In this document: positions 20,548 through 28,520 of the stretch, one piece after another
Numbering within the stretch: position 1 is the stretch's first letter
Layout of the letters: every line of letters starts with the position of its first letter
Assembly: GCA_963848295.1 (NCBI GenBank)
Contig: CAWKDB010000010.1
Coordinates: 3,520,001 to 3,584,000, forward strand
Reading direction: 5' to 3'
DNA: 64,000 nucleotides
From: an uncultured delta proteobacterium
GTDB taxonomy: Bacteria > Myxococcota_A > Polyangia > Haliangiales > Haliangiaceae
The notes under the pieces: generated by a model
Databases searched by the model: none
What the model saw: the letters and a program-made list of their open reading frames with translations, nothing else
Told to the model about the DNA's origin: nothing
Position numbers and translations under genes: made by a program

Positions 20548-21905
<1,358 letters not shown>

Positions 21906-21906
<1 letters not shown>

Positions 21907-22352
21907 TGCGCGGCCGTCACATCTGGGTTCTCGCCGCGCTCGCATTCTCGGCAATTCTCGTCGGCCATCGCGAGGTTGCTGCCGGTGGCGACGACGGCTT
22001 CGTCATGATCGTGAACCCGCAGCTCAAGATCACCGAGGTCGATCGCGACTTCGTCCGCGACGTCTACCTCAAGAAGGTCACCGAGTGGGATCGCGGCGGC
22101 GTGGTGCACCCGGTCGACCTCGACAGCAAGTTCCCGGCACGCGAGCGGTTCACCCACGACGTGGTGCGCAAGACGCCCGCGCAACTCCGCAGCTACTGGA
22201 ATCAGCAGGTGTTCTCCGGCAAAGGCGTGCCGCCACCGGAAGTTCAGAGCGTCACCGCCGTGGTCGATTACGTGCTCTCGAACGACGGCGCGATCGGCTA
22301 CCTGCCGGCGAACGCCGATCCCGGCGGCGCGCGCGTCGTTAGACTCAGGTAG
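21906..22352 (+). CDS. Small exported periplasmic-binding-protein-like protein (PstS/PBP2-like)
   Basis: Signal peptide; VMIVNP..VRDVYLKKVTEW..YWNQQVFSGKGVPP..GAIGYL; ATG overlaps the porin stop. Confidence 0.75.
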
Positions 22353-22804: not shown

Positions 22805-22920
22805 GCCTCTGGCCGCGCAAGCCACGGGAACTCCACGAAGCACGCCGACCCGGCAAGACCCATGGGTCAATGTTGACGGCACCAGGTCCTTCACGCGCCA
22901 GCGACGGTCGGATTTTGCAG

Positions 22921-22992
22921 TGAGGGCGGACGGACTCGAACCGTCAACCAGCGGATTAAGAGTCCGATGCTCTACCATTGAGCTACGCCCCC
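22921..22992 (-). tRNA. tRNA-Lys(CTT), CCA not encoded
   Basis: GGGGGCGTAGCTCAATGGTAGAGCATCGGACT-CTT-AATCCG...GGTTCGAGTCC..CGCCCTCA cloverleaf. Confidence 0.95.
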
Positions 22993-23020
22993 GATTGCTG
23001 CGCGTCTTTTTAGTTTTCAG

Positions 23021-23094
23021 TGAGTCCGGGGCGACTCGAACGCCCGACCTACGGGTTCGAAGCCCGGCGCTCTATCCATCTGAGCTACGGACCC
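23021..23094 (-). tRNA. tRNA-Arg(TCG), CCA not encoded
   Basis: GGGTCCGTAGCTCAGATGGATAGAGCGCCGGGCT-TCG-AACCCG...CGTTCGAGTCG..CGGACTCA. Confidence 0.93.
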
Positions 23095-23137: not shown

Positions 23138-23271
23138 GTCACGAATACCTGTAGGTGAGCCTGTGACAGGTAGGAGACCGAGATCTTTGTCCTTCCCAGG
23201 CGAAACGCGCTTCATGTATACGTCGGGGGATGCGCGACACCCGTCGGCGCTCGCCATCGCTGGAGGCCCAC

Positions 23272-26200
23272 GTGTTCGTTCGCTCGACCAAGCTAGACGT
23301 TCTTATCTCGGCGCTGTTCGTGGTCACCACGAGCGCGTGTAGCGGTCTCACCGGTTGCGGCGCGTGCAGCGCGAGCGCGCCTCTGCCAGGCGGTTCGCTG
23401 CCGTCGAATCAAACGATCGAAGGCGGCGCGCAGATCCGCGTCACACCGGCGGGCTTCACGAAGCTCACGTCGATCCTCCCCGGCGTCATCAACAACGCGC
23501 TCGGCGCCGGCTTCTGCATCCCACACGGCAGCGTCGGCACGCCGACCGGCGGCTTCCTCGCGACCGGCGCAGAGTGGTGCGCGAAGAACGACGGTGCGTG
23601 CACGCCGGGCTGCGACGCGCAGGTGTCGCTCAACAACGTCAACGGCCTCGTGCTGAGCGTGACGAACCAGCAGACGCTCAACGTCCAGCTCTCGACCTCG
23701 CTCAACGCGACGATCCACCTGGACGGCCAGATCGTCGGTATCGGCGCCTCGTGCGACATGACCGCGACGTCGAACGACCTCGGCGGCAACTTCGACATCG
23801 CGTTCAACATCAACGCGACGACCGGAGAGCTCGGCATCTCGCTCGCCGACTTCAACAACTTCAAGCTCGACGTCAACTTCGGGAACTGCGGCCTGGTGTC
23901 GGACATCGCGAACGTCGCGACCGACATCATCAACGGCCTGCTCAACTCGTTCGTCGGCCAGCTGCTGACGCCGGTGCTCAACTCGTTCATCCAGGGCCTG
24001 CTGCCGAACCCGCTCGGCATCGAAGGCATGTTGGATGTCGGCTCGCTGCTGTCCGGCATCTCGCCCGGCACCACCGCCGAGATGGAAGCGCGGATCGTGC
24101 CAGGCGGCTACGTCGACCTCGTCGGGAATGGCATGAGCCTCGGCGTGATCACCGGCCTCAACTCCGACGCGGATCCGACGACCCGAACCGGCACACGCCC
24201 CGACGGCGTCCAGTACGCGAGCGAGCCCGCCCTGTGCGTGCCGCCGCTGCCGATTCCGCTGTTCGGCGGTGCGCCGTACAACCTGCCGCTGTCGTCGCGT
24301 AGCACGTTCTCGATGCTACCCGCCGACGAGTTCAACGGCTCGCCGGATCCCGCCGCCGATCTCGCGATGGGCATCTCGCAGACCACGCTCGACCTCGCCG
24401 GCCACCACGCGGTGACCTCGGGCGCGTTGTGCCTCGGCGTCGGGACGTCCGCGATCCCGCAGCTCAACGTCGGCGTCATCGGGTTGCTCGTGCCGTCGCT
24501 GTCGGAGCTCGATGACTCGGGCACGGCGCCGCTCCTGCTCGTGACCCGGCCACAGCGCGCACTGACGTTCACGATCGGCGACAACCAGGGCACCGACCCG
24601 GCGCTCACCATCGGGTTCTCGCACCTCGAGGTCGACTTCTACGCGTTCTTGTTCGAGCGCTACGTCCGCGCGTTCACGCTCGATCTGACGCTCAACGCCG
24701 GCATCCACCTCGACTTCGAGCAACAGCCGGGCATGCCCGCGGTGATCAAGCCGACGCTGCTCGGCATCGACGCCGCCGACGTCACGATCTCGGTGCTCAA
24801 CAGCGAGTTCGTCAAAGAGACGCCTGCCGATCTCGAGGCGGTGCTGCCGTCGGTGTTCTCGCTCGTGACGCCGCTGCTCGGCAACCTCCCGGACATCACG
24901 GTGCCGTCGTTCGCCGGGTTCTCGCTCAACAACCTATCGATCCAGAAGGTGACGACGAGCCAGGACTCGTTCCTCGCGCTGTACGCGACGCTCGGTGCAA
25001 GTGCGCCGTTCCGCGCGCTCGCCGAGCAAGAGCCGCTCGCCCAGGACGCGCTCGACAAGCTCGACGCCGACATCGCGGCCCCGCAGCCGCCGAGCACCGG
25101 CACGTCACACCTGTTGAACGTGTCGACGCCGGCTCCCGAGGTCGTGCGTGGCGCGCTCGCCGGCAAGCCCGACATGAAGCTGCCGACCGTGACGTTCGCC
25201 GCCGACCTGTACGACTCGGCGGGCCGCGAGCTCGAGTGGAACTGGAACTTCAACGGCGGTCTGTTCCATCAGTGGCAACCCGGCGGCGAGCTCGCGATCA
25301 GCGACCCGGCGTTCGCGTGGCAGGGCAAGTACACGATCGGCCTCAAGTCGCGCGTCAAGGGCGACTACCACACCGTCTCGGCGGTGACGACGACGCCGGT
25401 GATCATCGACTCGGTCGGCCCGCACGTCTACGTCGAAAAGGCGACGTGGGTCGGCGACACGTTGACGATTCCGGTCGAAGACATCGTGTCGCTCGACGCG
25501 GTTCAGGTCGCGTTCGGTCGCCCGGGCGAGATCGTGCCGGAGACCAAGTGGGAGAGCACGGCGACGATCGATCGCGCCGACGCGCAGTTGCTCGCGGTCA
25601 ACGGCGAGATCGCGGTGTTCGCGAAGGACGAAGCCGGCAATCAGACGACGACGTTCATCGCGCCGTTCCACGGCCAGGCCGGCACGACCGGTTGCGTGTG
25701 CGGCGTCGGCGGTCGGACGCCGACCACCGGTGGGCTCGTCATGGTCGGCTTCGTCGTCCTGCTCGTGCGGCGCCGCCGTAGGGGGTGGCTTCGACAAGCG
25801 GCGGCTCGCGTGATCCGTTCGCGCCAGGCGAAGATCGTCGTCACGGTCGCGATGTGGCTCGGTGTGTCCGCGGCGTTCTCGATGCAGCAGGGCTGCAGCT
25901 GCAACAAGAGCAACGGCTCGTGCGAGATGGTGTCGGATTGCAGCGATTGCCCGGCGGGCCAGCTGCCGTTCTGCATCGACAACATGTGCGTGTGCTCGGC
26001 CGATATTCCGCCGGGCCGGATCGGCGAGTACTCGCATATCGCCGCGGCGCCCGACGGCAGCGGCTGGGTCTCGGCCTACGCGTCGTCGCACGGCGACCTA
26101 GTCGTCACGCAAGTCACCGCGCCGGGTCGGATCGATGACACCGCGTGGGAGTGGGTCGACGGCGTGCCCGATGGCCCGGTGCTCGTTCCCGGCTCGATGA

Positions 26201-27261
26201 TCCGCGGCGGCGTCGCCGCGGACGGCCCGGACGTCGGCATGTACACCAGCATCGCGGTCGCCGCCGACGGCACGCCGATGGTCACGTACTTCGATCGCGG
26301 CACGATGGCGGCGCCCGCGGCCAATTTGAAGTTCGCGGCGAAAGTGAACGGCACGTGGATCACCGAGATCGTCGACATGGGCACCGGATCGATCAGCAAC
26401 AACAGCGGCTCGCTCGTCGGCATGTACACGTCGCTGACGTTGCGCGCCGATGACGGTCGCCCGGGCGTCGCGTACCTCGCGCACGTCGGCGATGCGATGG
26501 GCGGTCACGCGGAGGTTCGCTACGCGCAGGCCAACGTCGCGCTGCCGATGGGCCCGTCGGATTGGACGACCTACGTCGTCGACACCGCGCCACTGCCGGT
26601 CGTCGATCCGAACAACCCGGACGTCTATCCGCTGCCCGCGGGTCTCGGCTTGTTCATCACGTCGGCGCGCGATCCGAGCACGCAGGCGCCGGTCGTGGCG
26701 TACTACGATCGGGCCGCGGGCGAGCTCAAGCTCAACAAGCTCGATCCGGCGACGATGCAGTTCGGCACGCCGGTCGTGCTCGACGGCGGCAGCGGCGTCG
26801 ACGACGGTTGGAACCCGTCGCTGCAGGTCGACCTGACCGGCGTCGCGCACGTCGCGTACATCGATGCGACGAGCGATGCGCTCAAGTACGTCACCGAAGG
26901 CTCGCCGGTCGAGATCGTCGACGACGGCTACCGGATCGTCGGTCAGACCGTCGACGGGTTGCCGAAGCCGACGTTCGACATCCTCGCGGACGCCAGCCTC
27001 GTGCTGCCGACCTCGGTCGGCGCGGTGGTCGGCTACCAAGACGGCACGACCCAGGAGCTGTTGCTCGCTCAGCGCGCCGACAACGGGATGTGGACCCACG
27101 TCTCGCTCGCGGGCGCGACCAACCCGTGGCCGGGCGCGTACGGCTTCTTCGCGTCGGTCGCGATCGCTTCGAGCAACCTGCTGATCTCGAACTGGGTGAT
27201 CGATCAGCCGACGGACGACAACTGGATGGAAGTGTTCGCGAACGCGACGGTCATCCAGTAG
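23272..27261 (+). CDS. Large surface protein: lipoprotein signal, BPI/LBP-like region, internal MYXO-CTERM, second signal/lipobox, Cys-rich module, propeller-like domain
   Basis: GGAGG RBS before GTG 23272; lipobox TSAC; GCVC...VGFVVLLVRRRRR at 25690-25782; second hydrophobic segment ending QQGCSC at 25902. Confidence 0.8.
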   Translation: MFVRSTKLDVLISALFVVTTSACSGLTGCGACSASAPLPGGSLPSNQTIEGGAQIRVTPAGFTKLTSILPGVINNALGAGFCIPHGSVGTPTGGFLATGAEWCAKNDGACTPGCDAQVSLNNVNGLVLSVTNQQTLNVQLSTSLNATIHLDGQIVGIGASCDMTATSNDLGGNFDIAFNINATTGELGISLADFNNFKLDVNFGNCGLVSDIANVATDIINGLLNSFVGQLLTPVLNSFIQGLLPNPLGIEGMLDVGSLLSGISPGTTAEMEARIVPGGYVDLVGNGMSLGVITGLNSDADPTTRTGTRPDGVQYASEPALCVPPLPIPLFGGAPYNLPLSSRSTFSMLPADEFNGSPDPAADLAMGISQTTLDLAGHHAVTSGALCLGVGTSAIPQLNVGVIGLLVPSLSELDDSGTAPLLLVTRPQRALTFTIGDNQGTDPALTIGFSHLEVDFYAFLFERYVRAFTLDLTLNAGIHLDFEQQPGMPAVIKPTLLGIDAADVTISVLNSEFVKETPADLEAVLPSVFSLVTPLLGNLPDITVPSFAGFSLNNLSIQKVTTSQDSFLALYATLGASAPFRALAEQEPLAQDALDKLDADIAAPQPPSTGTSHLLNVSTPAPEVVRGALAGKPDMKLPTVTFAADLYDSAGRELEWNWNFNGGLFHQWQPGGELAISDPAFAWQGKYTIGLKSRVKGDYHTVSAVTTTPVIIDSVGPHVYVEKATWVGDTLTIPVEDIVSLDAVQVAFGRPGEIVPETKWESTATIDRADAQLLAVNGEIAVFAKDEAGNQTTTFIAPFHGQAGTTGCVCGVGGRTPTTGGLVMVGFVVLLVRRRRRGWLRQAAARVIRSRQAKIVVTVAMWLGVSAAFSMQQGCSCNKSNGSCEMVSDCSDCPAGQLPFCIDNMCVCSADIPPGRIGEYSHIAAAPDGSGWVSAYASSHGDLVVTQVTAPGRIDDTAWEWVDGVPDGPVLVPGSMIRGGVAADGPDVGMYTSIAVAADGTPMVTYFDRGTMAAPAANLKFAAKVNGTWITEIVDMGTGSISNNSGSLVGMYTSLTLRADDGRPGVAYLAHVGDAMGGHAEVRYAQANVALPMGPSDWTTYVVDTAPLPVVDPNNPDVYPLPAGLGLFITSARDPSTQAPVVAYYDRAAGELKLNKLDPATMQFGTPVVLDGGSGVDDGWNPSLQVDLTGVAHVAYIDATSDALKYVTEGSPVEIVDDGYRIVGQTVDGLPKPTFDILADASLVLPTSVGAVVGYQDGTTQELLLAQRADNGMWTHVSLAGATNPWPGAYGFFASVAIASSNLLISNWVIDQPTDDNWMEVFANATVIQ

Positions 27262-27320
27262 CTCGATTCCGACCGTCGAGGAAATTTGCGTCCAGCTCGG
27301 TGCGTTGTCATCGTTCGGTG

Positions 27321-28520
27321 ATGCGCGGAGCACTCGTCCTCGTACTGGCACTCGTCCTCGATCCTGCGCGTCGAGCTGCAGCTGATAGCTGCGAGCCCGA
27401 CGCCGGCCCGGCGCCGCAGAAAGATGCGCTGACGCTGACGAAGGCGAAGTTCGCCGACCTCCCGAGGTGGGCCGACGATCACCTCTCCGAGGCCGTTCCG
27501 TCGTTCTTGCAGTCATGCGTGAAGCTCGGCGAGCTCAAGGACAACGATCCGGTCGGCATCGACGGTCACGGCGGCAAGGCGAAGCAGTGGCGCCACGCGT
27601 GCGCCGCGGCCGCCAAGCTCAAGCCCGGCGACGATGCCGCCGCGCGCGCGATGTTCGAAGCCGAGTTCGTGCCTTTCGTCGTCGCGGGCAAGACCGGACC
27701 GCGAGGCAAGCTCACCGGCTACTACGTGCAGGAGATCCACGCGTCGCGCAAGCCGCACGGCGCGTTCAAGATCCCGGTGCTCGCGCGGCCGGCCGATCTC
27801 GTGATGGTCGACCTGACGCCGTTCATTCGCGATGCCCACGGACGCCACATCTGGGGCCGGCTCGACAAGGGCGAGCTCCGGCCGTACGCGACCCGAGCCG
27901 AGATTCGCAAGGGCGCGCTCGCCGGCAAGAACCTCGAGTTGATGTACGCCGACGACCCGGTCGACGTGTTGTTCGCGCAGATCGAAGGCTCGGCGAAAGC
28001 GACGCTCGACGACGGCACGGTCGCATGGCTCGAGTTCAACGGCAAGAACGGCCGATCGTACAAGGGCGTCGGCGGCGTGCTCAAGCAGCTCGGCGAGTCG
28101 AGCCGGATCGGCTTCACGATGCAAGGCATTCGCAAGTGGTTCGCCGAGCACCCGACTCGACTCGACGAGATCATCGATCAAGACGCGTCGTACGTGTTCT
28201 TCGCCGAGAGCAAGGTCGCGGGCGCGATCGGCTCGCAGAAAGTCGTGCTGACGCCACGGCGCTCGATGGCGGTCGATCGCGCGTTCATCGCCGCGTCGAC
28301 GCCGGTGTTCGTCGACACCCACGCGCCGATCGTCGGCTCCCCCGGCAAGGTCGAGCCATGGGATCACTTGCTGATCGCGCAGGACACCGGCGCCGGCATC
28401 GTCGGCGCGGTGCGCGGCGACATCTATTGGGGCGACGATCGCGACGCAGCCGAGCTCGGCGGACGGATGGGCGGGCCGGGGCGTTACTGGGTGCTGCTGC
28501 CGAACGGCGTGACGAAGTAG
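27321..28520 (+). CDS. mltA: Lytic murein transglycosylase A
   Basis: FADLPRW, LTGYY, FAQIEGS, SYVFF, RSMAVD, AQDTGAGIVGAVRGDIYWG. Confidence 0.92.
   Translation: MRGALVLVLALVLDPARRAAADSCEPDAGPAPQKDALTLTKAKFADLPRWADDHLSEAVPSFLQSCVKLGELKDNDPVGIDGHGGKAKQWRHACAAAAKLKPGDDAAARAMFEAEFVPFVVAGKTGPRGKLTGYYVQEIHASRKPHGAFKIPVLARPADLVMVDLTPFIRDAHGRHIWGRLDKGELRPYATRAEIRKGALAGKNLELMYADDPVDVLFAQIEGSAKATLDDGTVAWLEFNGKNGRSYKGVGGVLKQLGESSRIGFTMQGIRKWFAEHPTRLDEIIDQDASYVFFAESKVAGAIGSQKVVLTPRRSMAVDRAFIAASTPVFVDTHAPIVGSPGKVEPWDHLLIAQDTGAGIVGAVRGDIYWGDDRDAAELGGRMGGPGRYWVLLPNGVTK

Follow-up and report, generated by a model that had tools for sequence, protein, structure and literature searches.

A conserved internal MYXO-CTERM tag and second signal point to a likely envelope polyprotein in Myxococcota

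Cutting of one chain at an internal signal to give two envelope proteins is known from Bradyrhizobium FbcH and from viral envelope polyproteins. These differ from the gene described here in carrying neither a sorting tag nor lipid anchors, and our literature search returned nothing relevant on FbcH. To our knowledge, bacterial envelope polyproteins are rare.

The closest described system is MYXO-CTERM sorting. According to the accessible part of Guo, Haft and Wall (2025, PMC11980579), MrtX cuts the tag of TraA, the cutting of MYXO-CTERM tags depends on their Cys, and Lgt is the lead candidate for lipidating that Cys. The gene described here shares with the substrates of this system (TraA, MXAN_4924) a Cys motif, a helix, an Arg cluster and an N-terminal signal, and its genome encodes a myxosortase, Lgt and a type II secretion system. 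In contrast to those substrates, its tag is followed by 492 residues, and the Arg cluster of the tag also forms the n-region of a second signal. The gene is a variant of MYXO-CTERM sorting and not a new category. The same paper calls internal MYXO-CTERM motifs rare or atypical and names MXAN_5598 of Myxococcus xanthus, whose N-terminal part it proposes, as an untested idea, to be processed and surface-anchored. MXAN_5598 is listed among vesicle and membrane proteins, without fragment data in the part of PMC4158809 that is available. In both genes the internal tag separates two protein units. The accessible part of PMC11980579 mentions neither a second signal nor a polyprotein for the internal tag, whereas the second unit of our gene is a predicted lipoprotein, as is its first; the domains of the two genes are unrelated, and the hinge of our gene is conserved across the phylum with repeated natural splits. 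The words 'internal', 'fusion' and 'polyprotein' are absent from the available text of bioRxiv 10.1101/2023.06.07.544157 and PMC3237569. A further parallel is an ArtA substrate of Haloferax volcanii, in which a central PGF-CTERM is cut and both fragments are detected (PMC6098224, as far as its accessible part goes). There too a gene fusion puts a tripartite tag mid-protein, but the fusion is strain-specific and to a NifU domain, with no second export signal and a different enzyme family. Across the literature searched, mostly outside subscription papers and in part as partial texts, no cleavage product is reported for any internal MYXO-CTERM, and neither the fused family nor a tag-plus-lipobox hinge is described beyond the remark on MXAN_5598.

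The window analysed here is a stretch of 64,000 nucleotides, and the features of the gene within it are collected in Table 1. A single uninterrupted plus-strand frame occupies positions 23230-27261, with 1,343 codons counted from the first ATG. The GTG at 23272 is the likelier start, with a Shine-Dalgarno score of -9.3 versus 0 for the ATG at 23230, and an identical database record (P0002) of 1,329 aa matches it. The nearest database homologues carry the source names Kofleriaceae and Myxococcales, with the lineage Myxococcota. The lipobox that the preliminary description had placed at the N-terminus recurs in most relatives: its Cys occupies the same column in 105 of the 119 nearest homologues, and an N-terminal lipobox was detected in 311 of 356 proteins that bear the hinge, by which we mean the internal tag, the basic loop and the second signal.

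Table 1 Features of the hinge-bearing gene, in window positions
Feature	Positions	Strand	Basis
Whole gene, ~1,329 aa, one frame	23272..27261	+	Longest ORF from 23230; Shine-Dalgarno; P0002
N-terminal lipoprotein signal, ending at Cys37 (numbering from 23230)	23272..23340	+	Sequence, homologue alignment
Predicted BPI/LBP-like double TULIP lipid-binding region (limits approximate)	23395..25005	+	Profile match
Probably two Ig-like beta-sandwich domains	25096..25674	+	Weak CEACAM1 profile match, E 0.017; beta-strand-like covariation pairs
Internal MYXO-CTERM: Cys motif (Cys822, Cys824), helix 1, five Arg	25690..25782	+	TIGR03901
Basic loop, predicted cytoplasmic; split point of relatives	25783..25833	+	Least conserved part
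Second hydrophobic helix and lipobox-like G-C-S-C (Cys889 = 25894-25896)	25834..25902	+	Cys conservation
Small six-Cys module	25921..25995	+	Sequence
Predicted seven-bladed beta-propeller	26005..27258	+	AlphaFold2 pLDDT 94.8, pTM 0.93

No promoter or terminator signal was found for the gene, and RNA run X20 yielded only pieces less than 90% alike. Genes for tRNA-Lys and tRNA-Arg lie just upstream (window 22920-23094, minus strand), and a gene for an MltA/3D-domain lytic transglycosylase, which was not recognised as a conserved neighbour, lies just downstream (27275-28520, plus strand). Farther upstream (20548-22352, plus strand), a secreted protein is encoded that contains a long Pro-Thr repeat and has a C-terminus resembling a barrel; the small protein after it has a weak PstS-like match. 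The gene neighbourhoods of fused genes revealed no functional partner; the same neighbours recur only inside individual groups (PfkB and nucleoside phosphorylase genes, poly(A) polymerase, kinases, MoxR/vWA). At five loci (L012, L029, L030, L035, L038) a further propeller-like gene lies directly 3' of the fused gene, and the three of these that were scanned have no Pfam or NCBIfam match.

Inspection of the hinge places the tag well inside the protein. As the preliminary description had it, the TIGR03901 match falls about 60% along the frame: it covers residues 821-851 (25690-25782), 61% along, and 492 residues follow. The match scores 20.6 bits in the genome search (cut-off 20), 19.0 when a 117-aa piece is scanned and 8.2 for the protein in full, and is real though borderline. 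The tag is C-terminal only in the split relatives described below, where it scores 18.0-23.6 bits, and not in the window gene. Twenty-one MYXO-CTERM matches in the genome exceed the cut-off; 19 end no more than 12 residues from the C-terminus, and the two internal ones belong to the window gene and to an MXAN_5598-like gene. Two weaker matches are likewise internal, one in a paralogue of the window gene and one in a DUF4266 lipoprotein fusion. The MXAN_5598-like gene (L003, G000:C10:1424409-1429397, plus strand) combines choice-of-anchor D repeats, an internal MYXO-CTERM and an AxA-type second signal with TraB-like barrel, TSP3 and OmpA domains downstream in the same frame; no fts genes were recognised by eye among its listed neighbours. 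The DUF4266 fusion (L004, G000:C10:4121662-4122815, minus strand) is a third kind of hinge, in which a secreted protein and MYXO-CTERM are followed by a canonical lipobox and DUF4266 (E 8.9e-19), with the frame broken upstream of the tag.

The uninterrupted frame across this joint does not reflect a faulty assembly. A stop or frameshift after the five Arg, which would have made two genes, was looked for and not found, and two further studies supplied contigs that span the joint free of indels: record 3 of X1 covers 25729-26020 with one substitution, and record 6 of X2 covers 25720-25890 and is identical. All 119 nearest homologues (the best 120 of 387 matches, minus the window's own; 55-64% identity) are fused, as is a close relative at 94% identity (L001), and fused homologues include proteins named for cultured species. 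By source name, cultured carriers are Bradymonas sediminis (P0272), Persicimonas caeni (P0281) and Labilithrix luteola (P0348). Because independent contigs bridge the joint and both Cys pairs of the hinge are kept in 118-119 of these 119 homologues, the joint is neither chance nor misassembly. The loss of a stop between two genes through assembly error, for which one could cite the metagenomic origin of the assembly and an apparent frameshift at another hinge gene, is against this in-frame coverage and hundreds of fused homologues a negligible prospect. A separate case is L008 (G116:C36), a gene fused through its hinge and frameshifted in the Cys-rich part; this is probably a sequence error, since a near-identical sister (L022) is intact.

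Homologues at large keep the fusion, a point that the preliminary description had proposed to check. Both halves occur in 367 of 437 proteins, a set in which three of the four underlying searches were length-filtered and so favour fused forms, and an automatic rule finds the hinge in 356 of the 367; eight of the remaining 11 have a hinge by eye, and three look like frameshifted gene calls. When the second half was searched without a length filter, the 150 top-ranking representatives comprised 75 fused proteins with the hinge, five fused proteins without an automatic hinge, one that is cut but retains the hinge, 59 that have just the second half (fragments for the most part, but also some complete stand-alone lipoproteins) and 10 repeat proteins that are unrelated. 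The hinge is present in all 37 fused ORFs read from genomes and is kept down to ~25% identity. The family was detected in 140 genomes out of 401 for the phylum and in 110 out of 251 for the class, and the queries used found no member in several taxonomic families; a related-locus search of genomes returned one locus only. The source genome holds a paralogue with the same hinge (L002, G000:C10:716478-722296, minus strand); before it comes another lipoprotein, whose start is Ig-like and which matches the TULIP profile weakly. Elsewhere, two fused genes stand in tandem, each with its own hinge (L034, G037:C220), and one family member is annotated 'respiratory nitrate reductase subunit gamma'.

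Conservation within the hinge is uneven. Among the 119 nearest homologues, Cys822 and Cys824 are present in 118 and Cys889 and Cys891 in all, whereas the loop has a mean identity of 28%, versus 61-70% in the flanking domains. Among the 356 hinge-bearing proteins the loop ranges from 2 to 50 aa with a median net charge of +6; as it has six residues or fewer in 51 of them, the Arg cluster appears to serve both signals.

In six genomes (L005, L006, L007, L052, L053, L059) the family is encoded by adjacent genes cut between the Arg cluster and the second signal, with overlapping stop and start in five and a short gap in one, which settles the question raised in the preliminary description of whether homologues are split here. 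The downstream gene has its own start and the same second signal, and each pair reads as an ordinary MYXO-CTERM gene with an ordinary lipoprotein gene after it. One further genome carries the halves unlinked on separate contigs (L009, L054), and each half has stand-alone versions (L010 and L066; L055, L057 and L058). In one of these (L066, G222:C8), a TULIP-like region leads directly to a terminal MYXO-CTERM with no Ig-like domains or propeller. Because candidates were picked for short frames (about nine of the first 40 loci fetched; 18 of 20 later ones, the others being one fused control and one filler), these loci overstate the frequency of splitting: the first 40 comprise 34 fused loci (35 genes), three split, one fused through the hinge and then frameshifted and two with the first half only, and 19 of the later loci comprise three split, four with a stand-alone second half, seven with the hinge in frame (two with frameshifts elsewhere), one with TULIP and tag only and four ending at contig edges. 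A tree of 46 first halves contains six changes between fused and split states, at least five of them forced by starred branches, and each of three split genes has a fused gene as its sister. This tree was built by a quick method without a mixture model, and a mixture-model tree agrees for those three genes. Since the tree is unrooted, its simpler interpretation, that a fused ancestor underwent fission, is not a demonstrated one.

Since some relatives split the gene exactly at this joint, the chain is likely cut in two. On balance we find it probable that the precursor is processed in the inner membrane to two separately lipid-anchored envelope proteins. The preliminary description had proposed a polyprotein threaded out-in-out, and comparison gives good support to that proposal through the splits at the joint, the lack of a conserved internal start and the encoded enzymes; the atypical second box weighs against it.

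That box requires closer inspection. The second signal has a basic n-region, a hydrophobic h-region and an invariant Cys, and it is internal, not at the N-terminus of the translation product. The layout described earlier (basic linker, hydrophobic stretch, QQG-CSC) holds up, with one correction: M-Q-Q-G-C departs from the usual lipobox consensus. The box of the window gene fails both a broad and a strict lipobox rule; the second boxes of 3 of 119 near homologues pass the broad rule and none passes the strict one, whereas 41 of 47 and 113 of 120 pass the broad rule in two distant groups, as do 56 of 80 representatives. Within the near clade, 99% have Pro at position -2, where the window gene has Gln, and helix 2 spans ~20 residues with conserved W, G, S and S. 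The second cut is therefore likely, but less sure in the window clade than in distant relatives.

The atypical box also makes a real, if fairly unlikely, rival of a scheme with one cut only, in which myxosortase frees the lipid-binding half and the propeller remains held in the inner membrane by the hairpin or by helix 2, with or without a lipid, such that the two products end up in different places. Pro at -2 occurs in just 3 of 131 N-terminal lipobox-like signals of the source genome, and the long, partly conserved helix 2 of the near clade is what a retained membrane helix might look like. Against this, the same [PQ]-G-C box occurs in ordinary N-terminal signals of split genes (L006, L007, L053), the Cys is invariant and distant relatives have canonical boxes.

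Two other readings dispense with a second cut in the long precursor. In one, translation starts again inside the loop, making the propeller lipoprotein independently of the long precursor. The window gene does have an in-frame GTG (residue 861), whose modest Shine-Dalgarno score, -5.0, might permit a restart in this one gene, and five of 37 fused genes reach -5 or better; however, 13 of the 37 lack any in-frame ATG, GTG or TTG in the usable stretch, and the mean best score at the junction is -1.6, versus -2.1 at internal controls and -6.7 at true starts, while the three split genes scored have ribosome sites at -9.8 to -13.1. A hidden internal start across the family is not supported, and we regard this reading as very improbable. 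In the other, nothing is cut, and the gene encodes a two-helix inner-membrane protein with two large periplasmic domains whose signals are relics of gene fusion that now serve as anchors. The dominance of the fused form agrees with such a protein, as does the fact that, in the accessible part of PMC11980579, myxosortase is tested on terminal tags only. It is nonetheless an improbable account, given that both Cys motifs are invariant over the phylum while the loop drifts, that repeated splits give working-looking separate genes and that cutting of internal tags is known from other systems (PMC11980579 refs 45-46; PMC6098224; both sources in part).

The enzymes needed for two cuts are encoded in the genome. 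A myxosortase core (Mrt_core) match of 103.8 bits, against a cut-off of 100, lies at C10:866k in one of six CPBP proteins, and all five other carrier genomes have Mrt_core over the cut-off. Two LspA, three Lgt and two GspD matches also exceed their cut-offs; the two LspA matches lie side by side (G000:C2:1059164-1060247, minus strand) and the three Lgt matches elsewhere. These LspA and Lgt paralogues might handle atypical boxes. The myxosortase match is barely over its cut-off, and the MYXO-CTERM match is borderline.

For processing into two lipid-anchored proteins, we infer the following sequence of events from the arrangement of signals. Sec would export part 1 until helix 1 stops transfer, the basic loop would stay cytoplasmic, and helix 2 would restart export with part 2, an out-in-out path that would leave both conserved Cys motifs on the periplasmic side. 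Myxosortase would cut at the first Cys motif, which would also be lipidated; at the second, Lgt would add the lipid and LspA would make the cut, and the hairpin between them would be discarded. Lipid would then be attached to both ends of part 1, through its N-terminal Cys and its MYXO-CTERM Cys, and this part would probably reach the surface via the type II system, while part 2 would be a lipoprotein. Fusion would guarantee co-production, as coupled genes do in split relatives. We also weighed an inter-chain disulfide between the CxC of the two motifs but rejected it, because this CxC is equally present in stand-alone propeller lipoproteins.

Pfam and NCBIfam gave no domain for either half; the fold of the first half is assigned from profile matches and that of the second from a model. 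Against human BPI, a profile built from 36 diverse first halves scores E 3.1e-7, with both TULIP domains aligned, the second weakly, and against LBP E 0.037; it has six PDB matches up to E 2, of which the other three are to an unrelated channel (E 0.28). In the Atlas, the top match of the first half (0.92) is a cluster bearing PF02886, and the first half falls below the Pfam gathering score for PF01273/PF02886. These matches predict a BPI-like double TULIP, probably followed by two Ig-like domains. Two tandem lipoprotein-like genes of the source genome (G000:C10:1998827-2003472, plus strand) have weak TULIP matches (A3 profile, E 0.008; PF01273, E 0.015), and the genome may hold a small TULIP repertoire.

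For the second half, the preliminary description had noted a Cys-rich module followed by a repeat region. Both were recovered: six further Cys are followed by ~420 aa in which the two GMYTS copies correspond to predicted propeller blades, and the AlphaFold2 model is composed of a small Cys module and a seven-bladed propeller. In relatives, the six-Cys module is enlarged to long Cys-rich repeats. The best fold match is CylK (Z 32.3, rmsd 3.2, 325 aligned), which scores above the lectins BP39L (Z 29.1) and PLL (Z 27.7), all at 11-17% identity. Because many generic propellers follow close behind these three, no function can be assigned to the propeller. Ten proteins (P0183, P0195, P0205 and others) carry 10-17 repeats of the same blade motif in a layout unrelated to the fused family. 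Mutual-information covariation across 216 fused sequences (effective 124) yielded some intra-domain pairs, with inter-half pairs inseparable from phylogeny.

The two halves thus resemble human BPI/LBP on the one side and PLL, PHL, BP39L and CylK on the other in profile or fold, at very low identity. In Bdellovibrio, TipA holds lipids and TipB opens TipA (bioRxiv 10.1101/2025.09.09.675085). The likeness is that of a BPI-like double TULIP in a predatory bacterium with a partner from an overlapping downstream gene; myxobacteria and propellers are not mentioned in the available part of that preprint. From the fold and this analogy, the protein could tentatively be assigned the binding or moving of lipids at the envelope by a lipid tube, with the propeller as a binding partner.

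If the conserved hinge does serve both as tag and as lipoprotein signal, myxosortase would work mid-chain and Sec would restart after a tag. Because the downstream fragment is large, the questions raised in the accessible part of PMC11980579 (cut site, lipid, lipidating enzyme and order of steps) would become directly testable, as an internal PGF-CTERM made possible for archaeosortase, and natural fused and split alleles would provide built-in controls. Annotation calls for caution, as such genes are read as single hypothetical or membrane proteins. In a broader and rather doubtful view, the tag-plus-signal hairpin would be a general polyprotein device of Myxococcota, and a three-anchor, doubly tethered, BPI-like lipid-extracting tube with its lectin-like propeller would form a machine with which predatory myxobacteria and Bradymonadales capture lipids at the surface, in parallel with TipA/TipB of Bdellovibrio. 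The gene also suggests that predatory Myxococcota have a family of BPI-like proteins that has yet to be described.
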